In this document: positions 191 to 64,000 of the stretch, in pieces | Layout of the letters: each line of letters starts with the position of its first letter | Position numbering within the stretch: position 1 is the stretch's first letter | Assembly (NCBI GenBank): GCA_965287045.1 | Contig: OZ336870.1 | Span: 41,788,001-41,852,000 of the forward strand | Length of the DNA stretch: 64,000 bases | Direction: 5' to 3' | Source: Carcharhinus amblyrhynchos | Taxonomy: Eukaryota | Translations under genes and position numbers: made by a program | The notes under the pieces: model-generated | Told to the model about the DNA's origin: nothing | Databases searched by the model: none | The model's input: the letters and a program-made list of their open reading frames with translations, nothing else

Positions 191-870
191 AAATGACATT
201 CCTTTCAGAAGGTTTTGCTTTCTGTGTTCATTTGTTTACTTGTTATTTCCAACTTGGCCAGTAGTTCACCAAACTCATGCTGGCTTCCCTCCAGATCCAA
301 TCTCCCACTGCTGGATACTTGAATAACTTCACAACATACTAATCATAATCATCATCAGAAAAGGCTCATATTTACGGCTCAGCTGTCAGATATTTGACCT
401 TTCTTCCTCCTCCAATAGACAACTGCATATTAAGTCGCATAAAAAAATTAAGAACTCTGCTTTAAGACAATGATTTCCTGCAGCTGTCACTCACTGACGT
501 CAATCACAACCTGGTATGTAGGAAAATAATTAAATTGAAGCAATAAAGGTAGGAGATAGATAAGTGGAGGGGACACTGACATTTGCACATTGGCAATCTC
601 ATTTGGTCTCAAAGGTTTAATTCTGTCCCCATCTTTATTGTTTCTGTAATGTCCTAAGTATGTTCGGGGAGGTGAGTTTTAACAAAACTGAAAAGGCTGT
701 GGTTTGCATACGGAGATTCAAACTGGCACATAATAGGCTTTATTGAAAGACATGTTCTCTGCACTGCACAAAGTGCAATGTGAAAGTAAAACAGCAGTCT
801 TGGCACACACCCTGATGACATCACCATTAAATCATGTGATCAGTTGGTAAAAGTAACCTACTGTTCGGAT

Positions 871-990
871 ACACTGAGGGAAAATTTAGTAAGGCCAATT
901 CACTGAACCAGCACGTCTTCCGTGCGGAAACCGGAGCACCCGGAGGAAACCCACGCAGACACATAGAGAATATGCAGACTCCATGCAGAT
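871..990 (-). mobile_element. V-SINE (HE1 body) internal fragment, tail type B
   Basis: ggaaaccggagcacccggaggaaacccacgcagac is the reverse complement of the V-domain. cactgagggaaaattta matches the start of the type-B tail. Confidence 0.8.
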
Positions 991-997
991 AGATAGA

Positions 998-1300
998 GGT
1001 GGCATGGTCACACAGTGGTCAGCACAGCTGCCTCACAACGCCAGGGACCCGGGTTCAATTCCCGGCTTGGGTCACTGTCTGTGCGGAGTCTGCACATTCT
1101 CCTCGTATCTGGCTGGGTTTCCTCTGGGTGTTCCGGTTTCCTCATGAAAGGCGTGCTGGTTAGGTCCATTGGCCATGCTAAATTCTCCCTCAGTGTGCCC
1201 AAACGGCACCGGCGAGTGGCGACTAGAGGATTTTCGCAGTAACTTCATTGCAGTGTTAATGTAAGCTTGCTTGTGACACTAATAAATCAATTTAAACTTT
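998..1300 (+). mobile_element. V-SINE (HE1 body) with tail type B, full length
   Basis: tRNA-like head with A-box-like cacagtggtcagc and B box gggttcaattcc, V-domain gggtttcctctgggtgttccggtttcctc, and tail ...cagtaacttcattgcagtgttaatgtaagc...gtgacactaataaat. Confidence 0.9.
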
Positions 1301-1540
1301 GAATTAGAGATGTTATAATGGGGGTTTGTCTCTGTGACTTGGGAAGGTTAGAATGGGGATGTGTCTTTGAATTAGGGAGGTTAGAATGGGAGAGTGTCTC
1401 TGTGACTTGGGGAGGTTAGAATGGGGATGTGTCTTTGAATTAGGGAGGTTAGAATGGGAGAGTGTCTCTGTGACTTGGGGAGGTTAGAATGGGGGTGTGT
1501 CTCTGTGAAATAGGGAGGATAGAATGGGAGTTTGTCTCTA
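1301..1540. repeat. Minisatellite, 7 units of 33/35 bp
   Basis: The core ttagaatggg (or variant) starts at 1313, 1348, 1381, 1416, 1449, 1484 and 1519. Confidence 0.9.
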
Positions 1541-2683
1541 TATATTGGATGGACTTTTGAGTGGTTGAGGATTTCTCTGAACCTACAAGGTTAAATAAGG
1601 ATGGCCTCATTGTGGACCAGACCTTGTTGTCTGGGATAGTTTGCCTGGGAGGCTGATCACAAGAGGTTCTTTGCAGGGACAACAATGATTTTATTTACTT
1701 GGCTGTTGCACATAGCCTAAATGTGAAGTAAAAATCATTTAAAATTAATACTTTTTGGATCCTCTGGAAAGCCATTCGCCAATGGAGTGGGAAGTATCTG
1801 GAATGTTTTCATACATTCTAAGCATTTCTGCCTACGATTCTGGTGAGGAACAAGATGCGTGATAAATTGTCAGTTTTCCACACATGAAATGGCCACTGTA
1901 ACCATGCAAGATTGCTTTGATCTATCCTTTGGGTATTTAAATACAGGATGAAGGTCTACATCAAAGCTGAAGAGTATGGAAGAGAAGATAACTCCAAAAG
2001 TAGCAATGAGGTGAATTCACACTTTGATTTGAAAATGCTGTAGGTTTTTAAAGGGAAAGGAAGGCTGACGGACGTAATAATGTTCGCAGCTTTAGGATCC
2101 TGTGACAAAATAAGACGAAGCAGAAGATGGTAATCGTCTGAACATTCACAAATTCTCTGAAAACAGTCAGTATCTGACAATGTGTCAATTAGGCTAGCAG
2201 TATGGCCCAGGCTGTCCTAGCAACAGGTCAAATATAGGATTTATTTGTCAGCCACGGTTCAGTGGGCAGCACTTTTGCCTCTGACTTCAAGGTTGTGGGT
2301 TCAAACACCAACCCAGGTATTTTAGCATCACAATGGTTGATATTCCTTTACGGGCTAAAATCAAACTCTACCAGACCATTGTCCTGACCACCCTACTTTA
2401 TGATGTAGAGTCCTGGGATCCACGTCAAAGCTGTCTACCACCAAAGACACCTGAAGTACATCATGAGAATTGATTGGCAGGGAAAAAATCACAAACTGTG
2501 AGGCTCTCCGTCATGCTAGGCTCAACAGCATGTAGACCACCCTCTAGAAAATTCACCTTAGATGGGCAGGCCACAACTCCCACATGGATGAGTACAGAAT
2601 CTCCAAATAGATCTTTTAGGGGGAACTGTCTCACGGTGGTCAGTAACATCAAAGTAGTCAGTAAGAACAACACCCTAAAAGCA

Positions 2684-2965
2684 CAGCAAGGTGGCACAGT
2701 GATTGCTGCCTCACAGTACCAGGCACCCGGGTTCGATTCTGGCCTCAAGTCACTGTCAGGTTGCACATTCTTCCTGTGTCTGCATGGGGTTACTTTGGGT
2801 GCTCCAGTTTCGTCCCACAGTCAAAAGATGTGTGGGTTAGGCCAGGCTAAATTGACATTCGTGTCGAGGTATTAGCAAGGTAAGTATGTGGAGTTACGGG
2901 AATAGGGCTTGGATGGGATTATGGCTGGTGCAGACTTGAGGGGCCAAATGGCACTATAGGTGTTC
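2684..2965 (+). mobile_element. HE1 V-SINE with CR1-type tail
   Basis: ggtggcacagtg...cccgggttcgattc...cccacagtcaaaagatgtgtgggttagg...ggtgcagacttgaggggccaaatggc. Confidence 0.85.
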
Positions 2966-3070
2966 AAAGTTAAAAAAAACTGCAGCCGACCATCCTGTGT
3001 AGAGGTAAGTTCTGAAAGTAGATTTTGCATGTTTCGGTGACCATCTATACCAGACTCACGCAGCATCTAA

Positions 3071-3389
3071 CATGATGTGGAGATGCCAGCGTTGGACTGG
3101 GGTAAACACAGTAAGAAGCCTCACAACACCAGGTTAAAGTCCAACCAGTTTATTTGATAGTAATCCCACAAGCTTTCGGAAACACTGTTCCTTCATCAGG
3201 TGTGTGGAAGGTTCTGATCAGAGAAGGGTATATAAAGTCACACAAAGTCACTGCGTGGGACTTTATATGCCCTTCTCTGATCAGAACCTCCCACACACCT
3301 GACAAGGGAATAGCGTTTCTGAAAGCTTGTGGGATTACTATCAAATAAACTGGTTGGACTTTTACCTGGTGTTGTGAGGCTTCTTACTG
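3071..3389. mobile_element. Penelope-like non-autonomous hairpin element with hammerhead-like cores
   Basis: Inverted arms 3109-3243 and 3255-3389, unpaired 38-bp tail 3071-3108, and ctaacatg repeated at both ends. CTGATGA..GAAA lies on the minus strand at 3171-3200. Confidence 0.8.
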
Positions 3390-4384: not shown

Positions 4385-4737
4385 CCCAAAGTGTAGCGGT
4401 AATGCTATGAAGCTAGTAATCCAGCAACCCTGACTGATGTTCGGGTGACATGGGGTTCAAATCCTTCCATGGCAGAATTTAAATTCAATCAATAATTCTG
4501 GAATATAAAGCTAGTAATAGTGACCATGAAAGCATTGTACAAAACTCCCACGAATGTTCCTTTAGTGAAGGAAATCTGTCATCCTTGATTAATCTGGCCT
4601 ACGTGTGACTCAGACCCACAGTAATGTGGTTGACTCGTAACTGCTCTCTGAAATGACTGAGCAAGCCATTCAAGGGCATTAAGGGTGGTAAATGCTGGGC
4701 TTGCCAGCAACACCCACATCCCATCAACAAGTGAAAG
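4385..4737 (+). mobile_element. tRNA-headed SINE, family C (head plus LINE 3' tail)
   Basis: A/B-box-like gtgtagcggt and gggttcaaatcc. It ends caagggcattaagggtggtaaatgctggg...cccacatccc, the tail shared with LINE family X. Confidence 0.8.
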
Positions 4738-5284
4738 TAAGATCAAGCTCCCCCTCAACTTTACTGGCACTCAGCTGTACTTCATCACCACTTCTCTCAA
4801 CTCCTTCACTGCTTCTTTGTTGTCAAGACTGCTAGTATGGCTTCTAGGTCTATGTGAATTGCAATTTCCTCCAATTAAATATCATGTTTTCCATTCACGC
4901 ATGGGATCTGAGCATCACTGGCAAAGCAAATATTTATCGCCCATCTCTAATTATTCTTGAGAATATGGTGAATTGCCTTCTTGAATCTGTGTTGAAGGTA
5001 CTTCCACAGTGTTCTTCAGGAGGGAGCTCAAGGCCTTTGACTCAGCAACTGTGAAGAAGTGGAATAATATTTACAAATTAGGATGCTGTGTCACTTGGAG
5101 GGAAATATACAGGTGATTGTCTTTATATATGCCTTTTGCCCTTGTTCTTCCACATGATAGGGGTCATGGAAGATGCTGTTGAATAAATCTTGATGATTAC
5201 ATTTTCAAGATGGCATACAGTGAAACAGTGCCCAGTGGTGGAGGGAGTTTGAGGCTGTGGAGAGGGTGTCAGTCAAGCGTTTAT

Positions 5285-5995
5285 TTTTTAATTCATTCAC
5301 TGGATGTGGGTGTCACTGGCTGGGCCAGCATTTATAGCCCATCTCTGAGAGCAGTTGACAGTCAACCACATTGTTGTCGGTTTGGAGTCACATGTAGGCC
5401 GGACCAGGTAAGGATGACAGATTTCCTCCTGAACAGACATTGGTGAGCCAGATGGATTTTTCAAACAATCAGCAATGGTTTTGTGGCCATCTTTTTTTCT
5501 TTTAACTCCAGATTTTTATCGAATTTAAACTTCACCGTCTGCTGTGGTGGAATTCGAAGCAATGTGCCCAGAACATTATCTTGGGTCTCTGGATTTCTAG
5601 TCCAGAGACAGTACGGGGCAGCATGTTGGAGCAGTGGTTAGCTCTGCTGCCTCACAGCGCCAAGGACCCATGTTTGATTCCCAGCTTGGGGCACTGTCTG
5701 TGTGGAGTTCGCATGTTCTCCATGTGTCTGTGTGGGTTTCCTTTGGATGCTTTGATTTCCAACCACAGTCCAAAAGATATGCTGGATAGATGGATTGGCC
5801 ATGCTAAATTGACCTTAGTGTCAAGGGGATTAGCAAGGTAAATATGTGGGGTTACAGGAATAGGGCCTGGGTGGGATTGTGGTCGGTGCAGACTTGATGG
5901 GCTGAATGGCCTCCTTCTGCACAGTAGGGATTCTACGATTCTATGATAAAAAACTTAAAAACAAATGTAAATACCACAACGCCACTGCCTCTCCA
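5285..5995 (-). mobile_element. Family C SINE interrupted by an HE1 SINE
   Basis: Tail ggatgtgggtgtcactggctgggccagcatttat at about 5300. The head resumes as aataccacaacgccactgcctctcc at 5970-5994. Confidence 0.75.
5615..5946 (+). mobile_element. HE1 V-SINE, full length
   Basis: Head, V-domain and tail aatggcctccttctgcacagtagggattctacgattctatga. Confidence 0.9.
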
Positions 5996-7051
5996 AGATT
6001 GTGTCAAGCTTCTTCAGTTTTGCATTTTCCTAAATTTCTGATTATTGACAGCAGCTCGGATGTTGGTGGTGTGGTTTAACCATGGCAATACTGCTGAGTG
6101 TCAAGAGGTGATTAAAATCTTTCTTGTTGGCAATGGCCATTGCCTTACACTTGTCTGGTGTAATCATTATTTCCCACTTACCAACCCAAGTCTGAATGTG
6201 GTCCAGGTCTTGCTGTACGCAGGCACAGACTGCTCCAGTATCTGGGGAATTGAACCCTGTGCACTCATCAATAAAAATTGACAACGCAGCTTTAGATGGT
6301 TGAGTCTAGGATTCTGCTCAGTGGAACTCCCACAGCGATTTCCTGGGGCTGAAATGCTCACCTTCCAGTAACCATAACCATTCTTCTTTGTGCTACGTGT
6401 GACTCCAGCCCATGGAGTGCTGTCTCCCTGATTCCAATTGACTTCCATTTTGCGAAGGTGGCTTGATGCCACACTCAGTCAGATGATCCCTCAATGTCAA
6501 GAACAATCACTCTCACATTGAGCTCTTTTGTCCCTGTTTGGACCACATTGAAACCTGGAGATGAGAGGCCCTGACAGAACACAATCTGAGCATCATTGAG
6601 TAGATTATTTCTGAGTAAGGGCTGATGATCGCCATGTCAACAACAGGTTCCATCACTTTGCTGATGATGGGACAGTAATTGACCTGATTGGGTTTGCCCT
6701 GTTTTTCTTTTGGATTGGACTTCCTGGACAATTTCCAATGTTGCCAGTTGTTGCAATGTCCTAACTATATTGAACAGCTCAGCTATAGGTGCGACTAATT
6801 CTAGAAAACAAGTCTTCAGCCTGGACCTGTTCAGTTTTATGTATCCAGCATTCTCAGCCATTTCCTGATGTGACCTGGAGTGAATTGAACTGGCTGAAAA
6901 ATAGTTTTTGAGAGGAAGGCGTGGGGGATGTAATTCCTCAGGAGGATGCCGAAATAGATTATCCCTTGGCTCAGTGAGCCTGCTCCACCAATTAGATTGC
7001 TGCTAATCCTCTACTAAATGCCATTTTCCTGCACTGTTTCCATGTGCCTTG

Positions 7052-8469: not shown

Positions 8470-8598
8470 GTTACAGGGCAGCACAGATAGACTTCAGCAG
8501 TTCAAAATGCAGCACACAACCATTTTCTCAAGGGCAATTAGGGATGGGGAACAAATGCTGGCTTAGGCAGTATCATATTCCTTGAAATAATAAATAAA
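8470..8598 (+). mobile_element. LINE family X 3' tail
   Basis: cagcagttcaaaatgcagc...ttctcaagggcaattagggatgggg. Confidence 0.7.
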
Positions 8599-8639
8599 CC
8601 ATTGACTACTTCAATGCTTTCACTTTGCAGTCTCCATCA

Positions 8640-15429: not shown

Positions 15430-16075
15430 ATACTAAAGTCTGAGATCACATACTAAGTGACTCAAGAACAGTTTCTTCCGTGCTGCCATCAGACTTTTAA
15501 ATGGACCAACCAAATATGAAGCTGATCTTTCTTGACATACTAGCTATGACTTTAAAACTACACTCTGCACCCTCCTTTCCTTCTCCCAGATGTACTCTAT
15601 GAATGGTATACTTTGTCTGTCTAGGATGAAAGAAACAATACCTATCACTATATTCACTGGAGAGGCAATGGCCCAGTGGTATTATCACTTGACTTTTAAT
15701 CCAGAAACTCAGCAAATGTGCTGAGGACCTGGGCTCAAATCCCACCGAAACAGATAGTGGAATTTGAAATCAATTTTTTAAAATCTGGAATTAAGAATCT
15801 ACCGATGACCTTGAAACCACTGTCAGTTATTGGAAAAAACCCACTGGTAATGTCCTTTAGGGAAGGAAATCAGCCGTCCTTACCTGATTTGACTGACGTG
15901 ACTCCAAAGCCACAGCAATGTGGTTGATTCTCAACTGTCCTCTGAAATGACTGAGTAAACCACTCAGTTCAAGTAATTAGGGAAGGGTAATAAATCCTGG
16001 CCAGCCAGCAACACAGGTGCCCCATAAATGAATAAAATACTATCCCAGTACATACAATGATAATAAGTCAAATAG
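15430..16075 (+). mobile_element. Rex1/Babar LINE 3' end interrupted by a family C SINE
   Basis: Collinear with 31740-31988 (ctcaagaacagtttcttcc...cagacttttaaatggac). The tail resumes as tatcccagtacatacaatgataataag at 16041. Confidence 0.7.
15660..16038 (+). mobile_element. Family C tRNA-headed SINE, full length
   Basis: A box tggcccagtgg, B-box-like gggctcaaatcc, and LINE-X tail aattagggaagggtaataaatcctggcc...aatgaataaaa. Confidence 0.85.
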
Positions 16076-24700: not shown

Positions 24701-24934
24701 ACTTTAGTCTCTTCTCTCTGCTACTAAAACCATAATCAGCATTTTCATCACTTGATCTCACTAAGGTTTCAAATCATCCAAAATACCACAGTTTGAATCC
24801 TTGTCTACACAAAATCAAACTGTTCTATTACTGCTGTGCACTCCCAGCTCCAATGTATCCATAGTACTACAATTCTGTGCCTACGTGTGTACTCTGTCTT
24901 TGAACACAACACCTTACCCCTCACCCTGCACATA

Positions 24935-25050
24935 GAAAGGGATTGCAGCAGTTCAAGAAGGCAACTCACCACCACCTTCTGAAGGGCAACTAGGGATGGG
25001 CAATAAAGGTTGGCCGAGCCAGCAATCCTGTAAAATGAGTACTAAAAATG
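24935..25050 (+). mobile_element. LINE family X 3' tail
   Basis: gcagcagttcaagaaggcaactcaccaccaccttctgaagggcaactagggatgggcaataaa. Confidence 0.8.
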
Positions 25051-27969: not shown

Positions 27970-28550
27970 GACTGTGCGGGAGGCAACGGGGGTCAAGAAA
28001 AATCAAATCAAAATGACAAAATTAAAATAAAGGGAGAAAAATCAAAGCATAAAGATTCCACAGAATCAGAGATGGGAGCCAGTGACTGCTGATGGACCAG
28101 GTTCATTGGAACATAACTTGCAGACAGTTTAGCCAGACAGAATTCCATTGTTAGTAGCGCGGCCATTTTATTCCATCATTATTGTTTGTAGAATGATCTT
28201 AAACCGTCAGCACTGCAGAATACAAACCCTCCCCTGTCTATAATGATGTTGGAGGTCCTTATCAGAACTGAGAAATGATGGCATCTCTTTGGTATTAATG
28301 AGGGATACATGCTGCCAACTCGTCACTGTGTTATTCCATAAGATTGTTTGATATCTTTTTGATTTCCTTTTGGAATATTTCATTTTTGCTCATGCTAGTT
28401 GTGATGATGTCTCAATTTTAAAAGATAGCCATTGTCATTAGTATTTATTAGATTTGAGCAGATCTCTTTTGGCATTACTCTGGTAGTTGGTACACAGAAT
28501 ATTACAGCAGATGTAGCGGCCGCGATTTCACGGCTGCATTGCACATTGCA

Positions 28551-28727
28551 CAGTAAAAAGTCTGACAACACCAGGTTTTAGTCCAACCGATTTATTTGGT
28601 AATACTCACAAGCTTTCGAGGGGACTGCCTCTTCAAATAAATCGGTTGGACTAAAACCTGGTGTTGTCAGACTTTTTACTGTATTTACGCCAGTCCAACG
28701 CCGGCATTCCCACATCATGACTACTAT
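28551..28727. mobile_element. Penelope-like hairpin element inside a MITE-like repeat (about 28516-29040)
   Basis: Perfect 48-bp arms at 28551-28598 and 28634-28681, tail on the right, TSD ttgcacat(t/c)gcac. Confidence 0.85.
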
Positions 28728-33811: not shown

Positions 33812-33943
33812 ATGATGTGGGTATGCCGGCGTTGGACTGGCGTAAACACAGTAAAAAGTCTGACAACACCAGGTTTTAGTCCAACCTATTTGTTATCAAA
33901 TAAATAGGTTGGACTAAAACCTGGTGTTGTCAGACTTTTTACT
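33812..33943. mobile_element. Minimal Penelope-like hairpin element
   Basis: Perfect 42-bp arms at 33850-33891 and 33902-33943, a 38-bp tail, and a perfect 13-bp duplication agtgggcaggatg at 33802 and 33944. Confidence 0.85.
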
Positions 33944-35898: not shown

Positions 35899-36095
35899 GA
35901 TATGGAGATGCCAGCATTGGACTGGGCTGAGCACAGTAAGAAGTCTCATAACACCAGGTTAAAGTCCAAAAGGTTTACTTGGTTTCACAAACTTTCAGAG
36001 TGCTGCTCCTTCATCAGGTGAGTGGAGTCACCTGATGCAGGAACAGTGCTCTGAAAGCTTATTGGACTTTAACCTGGTGCTGTGAGACTTCATAT
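35899..36095. mobile_element. Penelope-like hairpin element
   Basis: Tail plus inverted arms, hammerhead-like cores at 35991-36018 (-) and 36031-36060 (+), and TSD catgattaaatc at 35885 and 36096. Confidence 0.85.
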
Positions 36096-41590: not shown

Positions 41591-42805
41591 GGGAGCGATC
41601 TTACCCAAACAATTCTAAGCGCCAAATTGGGAGAGAATCGCATACATTTTTGGATGCGTTCTCAAACACAATCTTATGCCACTTAGTGCAAAAAAGGAGG
41701 CAAAGTATGATTCACACCAATAAGTGGAGTGGACAGAGTTTATTTCAGCTGGAAATCCAGCTGCTGACAGCTAGAGGTCTCCATTGTGCATGTGCCTTGA
41801 TCTCTCAGTGTTCTATGTACAAGTGTACATACTATACTGAGAGATCTATCACTCCCCCTGGGATATTGCCCCCTCCCCCCCCAATCCTGCCAACCACCAC
41901 CTCCCACTCTGGGCATCATTTCCCCCCCCACCCCCTCCCGAATTCTGACCTCCCCAGCTAATCACTGGCCTCCCTGGTTGACATGATGTGGAGATGCCGG
42001 CGTTGAACTGTGGTAAACACAGTAAGAAGTCTCACAACACCAGGTTAAAGTCCAACGGGTTTATTTGGTAGCAAAAGCCACTAGCTTTCGGGTCTCTGAC
42101 CGTTCATCAGATGAGTGGAGCGTTCTGAGTCATCCCCTGTTTGCGATCAGAACTCTCCAGTCACCTGACGAAGGGTCAGATGCCTGAAAGTGAGTGGCTT
42201 TTTCTACCAAATAAACCTGTTGGACTTTAACATGGTGTTGTGCGACTTCTTATTCCCTTGATGATCCATGGCCTGATCCCCTCCCCCTGCCAATCACTGT
42301 CCTGATAGCCCCCCTGGATGATGGTTGCCCTAGCCGATCCCTGATTGTCCCACCCCACTTAGGGCCCATCTCTTGGCACTGCCCAGTGCCAGGATGTCCA
42401 ATGGACCATGTCAGGGTACTTAGTGGGCTGTGCCAGACAGGTAGTGCCAGGCTGGCAGTGCCCAAGGGATACTGCCCCCCTGTCCCCGAACACTTGGGGG
42501 CATTAGCAAGGCTATTACATCTGGTCCCCATAGTTTGGGGACCATAGGTGATCCTCGCCAGTGAGGATCTCCATTGGAGAGGCCAGTTAGGCAAGTGAGC
42601 CCGGACGATCCTGTCTTGGCCTCACTAATAATATGTAAATTCACACTGAATATTAGAATTAGCCTTGCACCCTTCCCCAGCGTGAGGCTGATTACACCAG
42701 CTTCACAATGCCAGTAGTGCTGCGAGAGACAAGAAATCAGGCACGAATGTCATGCTGGCTCACCGCACTGGTTGACCGGAGGCACAAGCTGGTAAGATTG
42801 CCCCC
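41591..42805. mobile_element. PIF/Harbinger-like MITE, about 1.2 kb, with a nested Penelope-type hairpin
   Basis: TIRs gggagcgatcttacc and ggtaagattgccccc, flanked by tta and tca. The left part is homologous to 47338-47600. Confidence 0.7.
41982..42253. mobile_element. Penelope-like hairpin element
   Basis: Tail catgatgtggagatgccggcgttg..., inverted arms, cores at 42083-42110 (-) and 42164-42190 (+), imperfect TSD tccctggttga/tcccttgatga. Confidence 0.85.
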
Positions 42806-51329: not shown

Positions 51330-51980
51330 GATGGAGGTCTTTCTGCAAGGCCTCACAAGGCAACTGTACAGGGCATTGGTGAGGCCGCAGCTGGAGTACT
51401 GTGTGCAGTTTTGGTTGCCGCACTTGCGCAAGGATATTTTGGCCTTGGAGAGAGTGCAGAGGAGGTTCACTAGGCTGATACCGGAGATGAGGGGGTTGGA
51501 CTATGAAGAGAGACTAAATAGACTGGGTCTGTACTCATTGGAGTTTAGAAGGATGAGGGGGGATCTTATAGAGACGTCTAAGATAATGAAAGGGATGGAT
51601 AGGGTAGAGGTAGAGGGATTCTTCCCGCTCAGAAAGGACAGCAGGACTAGAGGGCACAGCCTCAAGATAAGGCGGGGGTGGGGGGGGGGGGGGGCGCGGT
51701 GGGTGGGTGCAGTTTAGAACGGAGTTGAGGAGGAACTTCTTCACTCAAAGGGTGGTGAATCTCTGGAATTCTCTGCCCGTTGAAGTGGTGGAGGCTACCT
51801 CGCTAAATATATTTAAGACATGGGTAGATAGGTTTTTGGCAGACAAGGGAATTAAGGGTTATGGGGAGAAAGCGGGAAAGTGGAACTGAGCCACTTCAGA
51901 TCAGCCATGATCTTATTGAATGGCGGGGCAGGCTCGAAGGGCTAGATGGCCTACTCCTGCTCCTACTCCTTATGTTCTTA
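51330..51980 (+). mobile_element. CR1 LINE 3' end, young subfamily, with an expanded G run
   Basis: LYRALVRPQLEYCVQFW...RTRGHSLKI, a frameshifting G run, then FRTELRRNFFTQRVV. Confidence 0.92.
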
Positions 51981-53112: not shown

Positions 53113-53795
53113 GAAAACCCAGCTTGCAGGTGCAGCAGGTGGTCAGGAAGGCAAATGGGATGCTGGCCTTCATAGCGAGGGGGATTGAATATAAAAGTAG
53201 GGAGGTCTTGCTGCGGCTGTATAGGGCATTGGTGAGGCCGCAGCTGGAGTACTGTGTGCAGTTTTGGGCGCCGTACTTACGCAAGGATATTTTGGCCTTG
53301 GAGGGAGTGCAGAGGAGGTTTACTAGGCTGATGCCGGAGTTGAGCTATGAGGAGAGGCTGAATAAACTAGGCTTGTACTCGTTAGAGTTTAGAAGAATGA
53401 GGGGAGATCTCATTGAGACGTATAAGATGATGAATGGGATGGATAGGATAGAGGTGGAGAGACTCTTCCCGCTCAGAAAGGATAATAGGACTAGGGGGCA
53501 CAGCCTCAAGATAGAGGGGGGGAGGTTTAGAACAGAGTTGAGGAGGAACTTCTTCACTCAAAGGATGGTGAATCTCTGGAATTCTCTGCCCGTTGAAGTG
53601 GTGGAGGCTACCTCGCTAAATATTTTTAAGACGCGGGTTGATGGGTTTTTGATAAGAGAGGGGATTAAGGGTTATGGGGAGAGGGCGGGAATGTGGAACT
53701 GAGCCACGACAGATCAGCCATGATCTTATTGAATGGCGGGGCAGGCTCGAAGGGCTAGATGGCCTACTCCTGCTCCTATTTCTTATGTTCTTATG
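53113..53795 (+). mobile_element. CR1 (HER1-like) LINE, young, 5'-truncated; open ORF2 C-terminus 53124-53702
   Basis: 192 uninterrupted codons KANGMLAFI...RPQLEYCVQFW...GIKGYGERAGMWN. The 3' UTR ends (ttcttatg)2. Confidence 0.95.
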
Positions 53796-55314: not shown

Positions 55315-56020
55315 AAAAGGGATGTGAGTGTTGTTAGCAACGCCAGCACTTATTGCCCTCAAGAAGGTGATAGTAGGCACCTTCTTCAACCACTAAAGTC
55401 CATGTGGTACAGACGCACCCACAATGCTGCTAGGAAGGGCGCTCTATGACTTTGAAAGTTTTAAGTCAAGGTGAAGAGAGACTTGGAGGTGTTTCCATAT
55501 GCCTGTTGCCTTTGTCTTTCTAGACGGTAGAAGCCATACATTTGGAAGATGCCAACAGACTGCCAATGAAGGTGAATGCGATGAGGCACTGTAACTAATT
55601 AAAGAGGTGGCAAGTGTAAGGTGTCACATTGTGTGAGGGCAGTCTGAACTTGGAGCTGAATAATTGTTGGGGACAGATTAGAGCGCACATTACCGTAACT
55701 CTTGCCCCAATCCTGACGCCGCTGTTGGAATTGGGAACATGTTTTATTCACCTGTAATTTCATTTCATGTTGAATGAACCTTGGTATGTTGCTCCCATGT
55801 GTCGTGTACATGTTATACACTGCTACCTCTGTATAGCTAGTCAACGTTTAAGGTAGTGGATGGTATGCCAATCCAGTGGGTTGTTCAGTCCTGGATGGTG
55901 TTGAAGTTCTTTAGTGTTGTTGGATTCACAAGTGAAGAGTATTCCTATCAAATTCTTGACTTGTTCAGGATAAGATATACCTTGGGGTGAAGGAGAAGCA
56001 GCATTGCTCTGCTTGTACCT
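55315..56020 (-). mobile_element. LINE family X 3' fragments
   Basis: gggatgtgagtgttgttagcaacgccagcacttattgccc...; gtcctggatggtgttgaagttctt. Confidence 0.6.
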
Positions 56021-57375: not shown

Positions 57376-58559
57376 GAAAACAAAATTGAGCCAGATAATC
57401 TTTACAATTGGAAATGTCAATCAGGGACTATGTAAAATAGGCTGCTGATTATTGTCCATTTTGTACCAATTTCACTCCCTTGGTCTAGCAAATATCTACG
57501 GAATCAATTCCAGATACTTCTACAAAACAGAGTTGGGATTCAGCAACAAATTCCCCTGCAATGGGGTCCTGAGATTTAGATAAAAACTCTCAGTCGACAC
57601 AATTGGAATTTTACTACAATCTCCCAGTGAACGCAGAGCTGGGATTTAGCTTTAACTCTCAGTGTAATATCGAAGTAGCATTTAGTAATTCCTTTCATAA
57701 ATCACTTATAAGCTCTAGAAGAATCATCAGCATTAGGAAATGCTTGCTGTGTGTTATTTTTAGTGAACATTGCTCCGAAGGTGTATGGGAAATCTTTCCC
57801 ATATGGAATACAACTGCAAGAAAATCAGAAACTTTATTTTAACTGAATCATTCTTTCCATTTTAAAGTTAAAGGTTACTCAGCTTACTCATTTAAAACTG
57901 TCACTAAAGACGTGAGCAGAGAGGTGAGGCAAATTTCTATCCCTGAGCCATATTGGAGCACAAAATAGCTTTGCCACCGTGAGTAGTTGCAGGAGACCAC
58001 TTTGTATCCCTTAAAAAAAGAATTGGATAAATATTTGATTTGAATCAAGATAAAAAGCTATGCAGAGAGTGTGGAGCCATGTGGTTTGTTCTATATTGTT
58101 CTAGCAAGGAACCAAGATGGTCTCCATCTCTGCTGTTATCTTTTACCGTTCTGTGGCTCCACAACGAAAGAGATGATATCCTTCATCACGTGTGTCATTG
58201 TAACATATCACCTTTTAATCTACTACATGTCTATTTCGTCATATATTTTAACTCTTGTTTCAAATTACTTTTTACTGATACTACTGGATTTGATTTAATT
58301 TTGTTCTGTTTCATTCTTTCTCTTCCTTGCCTTTCTGTATCTTTTGTTTCAGTTACCACTGCACGACATGACGGAGGGTATCCCCAAGGTGAAGACAGGA
58401 CTTTGTCTCTGGGAAGACTGTGCAGTGGTCACTCCTACCACCATTACTGTAATTGTGCTAATAGATACATTAGCCATGTAGAATAATAATGAAGAGGTCA
58501 AGCATATTTTTCCTTCTTGCTGGTTCCCTCCCCACCTGCTGCAAACTCAGTCGAACAAC

Positions 58560-59790
58560 TCCATTTTGTAAGAGTTAGCCAACTCAGCTACTGACCTACT
58601 GTTGGTAACTGAAGTCCCCCACCCAGAGTACATTCTATGCTCTTGCCACCCTCAGTGTTTTCTTCAAGTGGTATTTTACATGGAGGAATACATGGAGGCT
58701 GTAGGTGGTGGTAACCAGTAGACTGTTTCCTTGCCCTTATTTGATCTAACTGATATTTGAGAGTTCATGGGATTCAGAGGCATTGTTCAATACTCCCAGG
58801 ATAACTCCTGACTGTAAAACACTGTGCTTCCATCACTGGGACAGGACATAACCAGAAACAGTGATGGTGGTGTCTGGGACATTATCTGTAAGGTATGATT
58901 ATGTCTGAGGACACCTCCCCGACTTTGGCACACACCCCCAGATGTTAGTAAGGAGGATTTTGCAGGGTCAACAGGGCTGGAGGCACCATTGTTGTTTTTG
59001 GTGCCTAGGTTGATACTGGGTAGTCCATTTGTTTTAATTCCTTTTAGGCTTTGTAGAAATTTGATACAATGGAGTGGCTTGCTAGGCCATTTCAGAGGAC
59101 AATCGCCTTGCTGTATAGTTCAGATTCACATGTAGGCCACACCAGATAAAGATAGCTAATTTTCATCATTGGTGAGCCAAATTGGTTTTTACAACAATGG
59201 TCGTGTTATGATCACTATCACGCTTTTAATTTCAGATCTAAGTTTTGAAGTTTATTTATTAGTGTCTCAAGTAGGCTTATATTAACACTGCAATGAAGTT
59301 ACTGTGAAAATTCCCTAGTCACCACATTCCTTGGGTACATTGAGGGAGAATTTAGATGACCAATCAACCTAACCCACACACTCCAAAGATGTACAGGCTA
59401 GGTGGATTGGCCATGTTAAATTGCCCCTTAGTGTCAGGGGACTAGCTAGGGTGAATGCATGGGGTTATGGGGTTAGGGCCAGGGTTGGTTGCAGACTTGA
59501 TAAGCCGAATGGCCTCCTTCTGCACTATAGGAGTCTATGATTCTATGATTCCAAGATCTTTCGGACTGTGGGAAGAAATCAGAGTACCTGGAGGAAACCC
59601 ATGCCGACACGGAGAGAAGGTGCAAACTCCGCACAGACAGTGACCCATGCCAGGAATCGAACCCAGGTCCTTATTGATTAAATTTAAATTGAACCAGCTG
59701 CTCTGGTGGGTTTTGAACCTGCGTCCCCAGACCATTAGCTTCGGCCTCTGAATCACTGATCCACTGACATTACCATCATGCCATGTCCCC
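58560..59790 (-). mobile_element. LINE family X 5' end: tRNA-like head and 5' UTR (59790-59070) contiguous with the AP-endonuclease region
   Basis: The minus strand reads head, ...cctctgaaatggcctagcaagccactc..., then ..TNIWG..PK.GE.. and SYLTDNVPDTTITVSGYVL...LLVTT, which are endonuclease motifs. Confidence 0.7.
59240..59670 (-). mobile_element. V-SINE tail type B containing an inverted HE1 3' half (59381-59551, +)
   Basis: Type-B tail at 59240-59360. A plus-strand HE1 piece ending ctatgattctatgatt follows, and the minus-strand body resumes at about 59555. Confidence 0.8.
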
Positions 59791-63146: not shown

Positions 63147-64000
63147 CATAAGAACATAAGAAATAGGAGCAGGAGTAGGCCATCTGGCCCTTCGAGCCTG
63201 CCCCGCCATTCAATAAGATCATGGCTGATCTGTCGTGGCTCAGTTCCACATTCCCGCCCTCTCCCCACAACCCTTAATCCCCTTGCCTATCAAAAACCTA
63301 TCAACCCGCGTCTTAAATATATTTAGCGAGGCAGCCTCCACCACTTCAACGGGCAGAGAATTCCAGAGATTCACCACCCTTTGAGTGAAGAATTTCCTCC
63401 TCAACTCCGTTCTAAACCTCCCCCCCTTTATCTTGAGGCTGTGCCCTCTAGTCCTACTGTCCTTTCTGAGCAGGAAGAGCCTCTCCACCTCTATCCTATC
63501 CATCCCATTCATCATCTTATATGTCTCAATGAGATCTCCCCTCATTCTTCTAAACTCTAGCGAGTACAAGCCTAGTTTATTCAGCCTCTCCTCATAGTTC
63601 AACATCCTCAACTCCAGTATCAGCCTAGTAAACCTCCTCTGCACTCCCTCCAAGGCCAAAATATGCTTGCGTAAGTGCGGCGACCAAAACTGCACACAGT
63701 ACTCCAGCTGCGGCCTCACCAGCGCCCTGTACAGTTGCAGCAAGACCTCCCTACTTTTATATTTAATCCCCCTCGCTATGAAGGCCAGCATCCCATTCGC
63801 CTTCCTGACCACCTGCTGCTCCTGCAGGCTGGGTTTTTGCGACTCATGCACAAGGACCCTGAGGTCCCTCTGCACTGTTGCATGCTGCAGTTTTTCGCCA
63901 TGTAAGTAATAGTCCTTCCTACCATTATTCCTACCAAAGTGGACAACTTCACACTTGCCAACATTAAATTCCATTTGCCAGTTCCTGGCCCATTCGCCCA
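63147..64000 (-). mobile_element. CR1 (HER1-like) LINE, young; open ORF2 C-terminus 63240-63974 continuing past the window edge
   Basis: MEFNVGKCEVVHFG...KANGMLAFI...RPQLEYCVQFW, 244 codons without a stop. Same subfamily as 53113-53795. Confidence 0.95.

Follow-up and report, generated by a model that had tools for sequence, protein, structure and literature searches.

An interrupted 5' LINE fragment with a tRNA-like head

The window (the whole stretch of 64,000 nucleotides that was analyzed) carries on its minus strand a dead, interrupted 5' fragment of an abundant 3.29-kb LINE of the CR1 group that lacks ORF1 and is, by its 5' sequence, an elasmobranch Zenon element (Table 1). This copy is the decayed 5' third of the family, split by nested repeats, in which a tRNA-Ser-like head is followed by the body of the 5' UTR and by the remnant of a single reading frame with many stops and frameshifts. 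Read from 59057 to 58362, the broken frame gives ...LLTNIWG...SYLTDNVPDTTITVSGY..., with the TNIWG motif of the AP-endonuclease at 58949 and SYLTDNVPDTTIT directly after it. The copy ends at 58362, which corresponds to family position ~1108 of 3291, and it has neither RT nor tail. The first-pass annotation had read head, body and endonuclease as continuous; all three lie where it put them and on the minus strand, but ~434 bases of other repeats separate the head from the body. One of the intervening repeats, present in two parts, we take to be V-SINE-like.

The further claim that all pieces of the element are visible in the window holds for head, body and endonuclease, but not for the RT and tail of this copy, and the locus is linked to the tails that had been called intact (at 8470 and 24935) only via full-length copies elsewhere in the genome. 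Those two sequences are indeed LINE 3' ends, but stubs only, with ~80-95 bases matched. No tRNA gene was found in the window with ARAGORN.

Other repeats in the window include three young CR1 3' fragments that are 84-94% alike (51360-51980, 53114-53795 and 63147-63837) and a MITE-like family of short repeats with internal inverted repeats (3070-3389, 28548-28719, 33812-33943, 35899-36094 and 41981-42252). The CR1 and Tx1 labels used here for neighboring and control repeats are presumptive, based on motifs.

Table 1. Features of the LINE family and its derivatives, in window coordinates or, where so marked, in positions of the family majority sequence.
Feature	Position	Strand	Remarks
tRNA-Ser-like head of LINE copy	59672..59790	-	71% to family positions 10-122
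Decayed A box	59783-59773	-	within head
Decayed B box	59719-59709	-	within head
Nested later insertions between head and body	59238..59671	-	self-BLAST of window
Repeat taken to be V-SINE-like, in two parts	59670-59556 + 59374-59238	-	self-BLAST of window
Short repeat splitting the preceding repeat	59377-59554		opposite orientation; self-BLAST of window
Body of LINE 5' UTR	59068..59237	-	3' end is the hairpin with the main SINE junction
Remnant of single reading frame	58362..59057	-	basic N-terminal peptide, then AP-endonuclease
LINE 3' stub (frame end, 3' UTR, A-rich end)	8487..8600	+	83% to family 3177-3253
LINE 3' stub	24931..25050	+	88% to family 3169-3261
Old RT-region fragment, same or sister family	6035..6964	-	63% to family 1630-2653; tblastn
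Old 3' LINE fragment	4887..5279	-	64% to family 2867-3291
Old 3' LINE fragments	55343..55964	-	67-74% to family 2770-3238
SINE, main junction class	15659..16037	+	joins family 1-316 with ~3219-end
Older SINE copy, main junction class	4385..4736	+	small deletion at junction
SINE, second, shorter junction class	5285..5614	-	joins family ~289 with ~3231; another repeat directly at the 5' end
A box TGGCCTAGTGG	family position 11
B box GGTTCGAATCC	family position 74
Body, ~190 nt	ends at family position 316
Single endonuclease-RT frame	family 326-3232		968 codons without stop
3' UTR	family 3' end		50 bases, then A tail

The junction of head and body with the endonuclease recurs across the genome

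We searched the genome (2.9 Gb) with a query spanning the junction, and 40 scored candidates of 2,675 yielded 44 matches. The 29 other loci fetched, a sample selected for the junction, all have family 5' sequence upstream of the endonuclease region; in 16 of them this sequence reaches into the head's first 20 bases. We also examined a sample that was anchored on the RT and not selected for the junction, made up of 40 of 150 RT matches (ranks 31-50 less one already fetched, plus 20 hand-picked from lower ranks). Eight of these 40 copies reach back past the junction and every one continues into body or head, four of them to family position 14 or less. The rest comprise two head-bearing internal deletions, one copy with a separate head 1 kb away, and 29 that are 5'-truncated, with flanks that have nothing in common upstream except a CR1 tail in three. 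No alternative 5' end and no ORF1 were seen among the 40. Thus, the junction is not confined to the window locus, being found genome-wide both with the junction query and in RT-anchored copies, and the RT-picked copies that cross it (8/8) have the same head and lack ORF1.

We considered that a SINE might have inserted by chance just upstream of a truncated LINE at the window locus, which is crowded with nested repeats. This we regard as extremely improbable, since the junction is identical to the base in dozens of loci and occurs also in the RT-anchored copies and in the published consensi of five species. Target-site duplications were not convincing in any of 10 full-length LINEs or 9 pattern-scorable SINEs, so that insertion of head-to-tail units in a single event is read from alignment only.

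Within the fetched loci, five near-identical 5'-truncated copies lie within 0.5 Mb (L032-L035 and L043; G000 C9, 100.4-101.0 Mb) and likely belong to a tandem segmental duplication. Arrays of intact Tx1-type LINEs of 1,190 codons, spaced ~5-10 kb apart (L159, L170, L182 and L183; G000 C98, C334 and C734), suggest insertion into a tandem repeat.

An ORF1-less Zenon family with a head resembling tRNA-Ser

Our reference for the family is a majority sequence of 3,291 bases from 94 loci, with up to 80-fold cover, to which individual copies are 75-94% identical. In it, AP-endonuclease and RT share one frame, and RVT_1 was detected on a natural copy; the family protein is 35-42% identical to intact EN-RT proteins. 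There is no place for an ORF1, as the frame starts only 10 bases after the body and RT-anchored copies show no other 5' end. We found no intact copy. The longest open frame among the 150 RT matches is 395 amino acids, and on this count the family looks extinct in the C. amblyrhynchos genome.

In the RT tree, which holds no named Zenon references, the element falls outside the host CR1 clade and far from host Tx1 elements, and groups with an unnamed protein (support 100/98). Its identity as Zenon comes from the first 400 bases, which match the published shark and ray consensi when compared by eye. We therefore classify the element, from these sequence comparisons, as a CR1-group Zenon and not as Ingi/Vingi, the groups cited as a precedent in the first-pass annotation.

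Two further observations concern the coding region. Pieces of the LINE frame appear as exons in four predicted shark gene models (P0018, P0024, P0025 and P0031), probably through annotation artefacts or exonisation. Furthermore, the coding region folds far more stably than shuffles at family 450-750 and 1200-1800 (150-base windows with 30 shuffles each; lowest z -5.9).

The family head matched tRNA-Ser(GCT) best, with scores of 69-75 against a shuffled maximum of 51-53, in a comparison with 27 tRNA labels sampled from this genome (a sample without Tyr, Ala, Pro, His, Asp and Sec); the Ser-like character proposed at first pass thus stands among the labels sampled. Rfam at E<=1 detected neither a tRNA-type head nor an IRES in 8 decayed loci. 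The body matched no known SINE domain in weak tests and is not a UCON3 domain, judged by four motifs only. The head is probably a functional SINE-type promoter, and probably one not described before in this known Zenon family.

The B box forms one arm of a long stable hairpin at family 69-115 (z -3.9; decayed at window 59725-59680), and GGCAGAT on its loop side is complementary to part of the body as well. We rejected a hammerhead-like motif near family position 140, as it has no stem II and is not conserved across subfamilies.

The sense strand is depleted of T-runs

A run of at least four Ts terminates Pol III, and degenerate T-rich signals do so in part (available text of PMC3141230). We looked for such sites in the majority sequence, on which all T-run statistics rest because no intact copy was found. 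On the sense strand, runs of at least four Ts are absent (0 vs 4.6 expected) and TTT runs are rare (5 vs 22.6 expected), with A, C and G runs near expectation. Five-nucleotide windows with four Ts number 0 on the sense strand (3.28 kb) and 95 on the antisense strand. Neither 3,000 synonymous-codon shuffles, which averaged 7.3 clusters, nor 5,000 base shuffles, averaging 13.7, produced a single sequence free of T clusters. Majority sequences of three control families from the same genome, none of them a Zenon with an ordinary 5' end, gave 9.0 and 8.6 clusters per kb (two CR1 families) and 6.3 clusters per kb (one Tx1 family, at the same T content as the Zenon family). One near full-length CR1 LINE that served as a control lies inside a copy of the Zenon element (L072:3030-6700).

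The contrast between Zenon and control LINEs is seen in single copies as well. The majority of the 25 most diverged copies likewise has no T4, although at 93% identity to the young one it is not an independent lineage, and in raw decayed copies the T4 deficit is 2-3-fold (88 vs 281; 36 vs 83). Phe makes up 1.76% of the family frame, compared to 3.33 +/- 0.59% in 33 intact relatives. The sole metagenomic relative (L224) is distant and T-rich. Thus, the check for internal T-runs suggested at first pass came out strongly in favor of Pol III. With a tRNA-type promoter at one end and no Pol III stop signals along the whole length, we consider it probable, on this indirect evidence, that full-length LINE RNA is made by Pol III from the head, and likely that such transcription caused the T-run deficit, which selection for unhindered Pol III elongation would predict.

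We weighed this against transcription by Pol II, either from the conserved body or by read-through from a host gene. The tRNA head would then be a passenger or serve only the SINEs, and T-runs would be avoided for some other reason, such as a U-rich-RNA sensor or the avoidance of splice acceptors. LINEs are generally regarded as Pol II transcripts (available text of PMC10886601 and PMC5786205), the body is better conserved than the head across subfamilies, and the element has an A tail (A5 or longer at 37/52 LINE ends) and AATAAA at family positions 3241 and 3283. However, no T-run deficit is seen in three other LINE families of the same genome. The deficit affects T alone among the bases and only the sense strand, where C runs persist, as do pyrimidine tracts of 10 or more; it also extends to degenerate T-rich sequence of a kind resembling non-canonical Pol III terminators (PMC3141230, as far as available). 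We therefore think it unlikely that Pol II makes the full-length LINE.

A fixed terminal T-run at the 3' end was not supported, since T runs of at least four within 20 bases of the end occur at 9/52 LINE ends and 5/43 SINE ends, near the background of 11%. Contigs from four runs cover the element and are silent on start, strand and level. Pol III products are usually short (available text of PMC10886601), and a counterpoint to transcription by Pol III is that efficient translation of the RNA would go unexplained.

SINEs built from the two ends of the LINE

The associated SINEs (~390 bases, non-coding) have a tRNA-derived head with A and B boxes and join, at three or more junctions, 289-316 bases from the LINE start to 60-75 from its end, such that both ends come from one LINE; identity to the LINE end over the final ~70 bases is 75-97%. 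Three in the window, called family C at first pass, had been described as joining the body to the LINE tail at a single junction. This is the case for the copies at 15660 and 4385, but the copy at 5285 has a shorter junction. Among 90 loci from three queries, the main class (316 to ~3219) accounts for 49 and shorter classes (from about 289 to 3220 or 3231) for 30, with 11 in no class; these classes were assigned by patterns, and a few assignments are visibly loose. The second and third junctions could be later deletions inside the SINE. Low-copy deletion forms (L090, L003, L238 and L018) retain LINE sequence beyond the main junction. At each of their two ends, young SINEs carry the states of young LINEs and older SINEs depart from them, in a comparison for which too few older LINE tails were scored for completion.

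The simpler reading is that the SINEs descend from the LINE by internal deletion, and we hold this direction, which comes from comparing the copies, to be quite probable. The reverse order seems rather unlikely to us. In it, template switching would have supplied a 5'-truncated LINE with the head and body of an older tRNA-headed SINE that used a Zenon tail, with LINE and SINE afterwards continuing to exchange ends, an alternative that concerns the order only and is compatible with Pol III transcription. The head does come ultimately from a tRNA or a SINE, the main junction is shared by old and young SINEs (49/90 loci), as for one long-lived SINE lineage, and module exchange among SINEs is common (PMC5786205 and PMC5499810, in the parts available). 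Nevertheless, the LINE must then have acquired precisely the head and body while leaving the whole SINE tail behind. About 10 bases separate the end of the body from the apparent frame start, deletion forms exist with other breakpoints inside LINE-only sequence, and, in the weak tests above, no known SINE domain accounts for the body. Thus, the central proposal of the first-pass annotation, an ORF1-less LINE with a tRNA-type head and a SINE that joins head and body to the tail, is supported in its structure; Pol III use and the direction of descent are what we infer.

The frame appears to start without AUG

No AUG precedes the endonuclease in the 968-codon frame: the endonuclease motif stands at residue 40 and the first Met comes much later, at residue 284, and the apparent frame start is GCT-ACA-AAG at family position 326. 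The spacing from GCT-ACA-AAG to the endonuclease motif peaks at 99, 102 and 105 bases among subfamilies, with a linker of 6 or 7 bases directly before GCT, and ATK stands at a like distance before the basic N-terminal stretch in 2/30 relatives inspected. Together, the spacing peaks, the late first Met and the ATK relatives make it likely that the frame starts near GCT. An early stop in the frame of several decayed copies counts against a GCT start; the 3n spacing is kept in only 17/34 decayed single copies, and in the published SquAca Zenon-1 consensus, as read by eye in the part visible, the spacing is 20 bases, not a multiple of three.

An AUG near position 348, in the +1 frame, is present in all published Zenon consensi read (first 400 bases), which allows a start at this AUG followed by frameshift or reinitiation. 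Against such a model, the stop that ends the frame of this AUG varies in position among subfamilies, and it is in the other frame that relatives can be aligned; we saw no slippery site that is conserved.

Just upstream of GCT lies a hairpin with a 7-base loop, in which TAGC can pair with GCTA at the first codon (4 bp). A rival helix of 6-8 bp uses the same bases, and the folding energy is ordinary (z about -0.2 to -0.5). The loop T is relaxed in SINEs (21/45 vs 7/42, p=0.003), a difference that fails correction for 146 positions, and the helix list holds no convincing nested PKII/PKIII with L1.1 motifs. An IRES-like start of the LINE frame is therefore a weak lead, and a doubtful one, although a tRNA-mimicking start has been raised as a possibility for LINEs (PMC3894237, passage available).

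In many intact relatives (P0039-P0052) the first endonuclease motif is not preceded by any Met, or the N terminus has a basic extension, so that the non-AUG start may be older than the tRNA head.

Proposed mechanism and its meaning

We propose that Pol III would start at the tRNA-Ser-like head, and that selection on active masters would have removed every T4 and near-T4 site, such that the polymerase could reach the 3' end. The transcript would end at a T-run in flanking DNA or at the tail, and the uncapped RNA would be translated from a non-AUG start near GCT-ACA-AAG. The LINE protein would then return RNAs that carry the LINE 3' end to the genome as new copies. As the promoter lies at one end and the recognition tail at the other, any internal deletion of the LINE would at once give a working SINE. 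As a whole, this explanation (an ORF1-less Zenon with a Pol III-type head, the family C SINEs being likely internal-deletion products) is one that we consider to have a good chance of being right. A bolder version is improbable: that the LINE lived autonomously and wholly outside the capped-mRNA route over the whole history of sharks and rays, with Pol III transcription from a tRNA-Ser head, 3 kb free of terminators, an AUG-less, IRES-like 5' UTR whose last hairpin mimics an anticodon on the first codon, and each internal deletion a ready-made SINE.

If true, a 3.3-kb coding element built for Pol III would break the usual division of labor, in which Pol II transcribes LINEs and Pol III transcribes SINEs. 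It would also show that a complete enzyme gene can be cleared of terminators by selection, to the point of altering its amino-acid composition, and would provide a one-step route from LINE to SINE. Two questions would become testable, namely whether Pol III can be the source of a natural mRNA and how the frames of ORF1-less LINEs start without AUG. T-run depletion would offer a cheap screen for other Pol III-made LINEs.

Comparison with known systems

The Zenon-1 consensi of four sharks and a ray (CarCar, HypSab, RhiTyp, ScyCan and SquAca; PMC13343379, as far as available) lack ORF1 and have A tails. They resemble our family in their first 400 bases, compared by eye and including the head, and in length (3.24-3.31 kb). 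In hagfish and coelacanth Zenon of the same source, the head is absent from the 400 bases visible. Thus, the LINE family is a known one, and relative to the available text of PMC13343379, in which they are not described, its SINE-type head, T-run deficit, non-AUG start and derived SINEs are new; the words tRNA, promoter and polymerase III do not occur in that main text.

Non-LTR elements are held to be transcribed by Pol II and SINEs by Pol III (available text of PMC10886601), and PMC3894237 allows "or pol III" with no example in the passage available. We found no description of a tRNA-type LINE head or of a Pol III-made LINE in the literature searched, which lay outside subscription journals, Repbase Reports and Dfam (further sources cited alongside, each seen in part, are PMC7245038, PMC3747384, PMC11481361, PMC5499810, PMC4494074 and bioRxiv 10.1101/443036).

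For the translation start, the closest likeness is to the dicistrovirus intergenic IRES, which has a non-AUG start, commonly GCU, right after a hairpin with a codon-pairing loop (PMC10516663, in part). In contrast, the shark LINE has only the 4-bp loop-to-codon pairing, with no Rfam match and no unusual folding energy.

Bipartite SINEs derived from RTE and Vingi likewise combine the 5' and 3' parts of one LINE (available text of PMC5786205). There, bipartite forms are listed only for RTE, Ingi, Vingi and R2, and tRNA-like sequence is mentioned in passing for RTE-1_DAn and relatives; the model differs from ours, in that the deletion comes first and the tRNA head is gained later, and in that the LINE is regarded as Pol II-made. 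Most similar in origin is the Persaeus SIDE of lepidopteran CR1-Zenon (PMC6740152, in the part available), an internal deletion of a Zenon LINE that keeps both ends. Persaeus, however, has neither tRNA homology nor a Pol III promoter, whereas the shark deletion product has A and B boxes and, because its parent LINE carries the head, is a SINE2 in structure.
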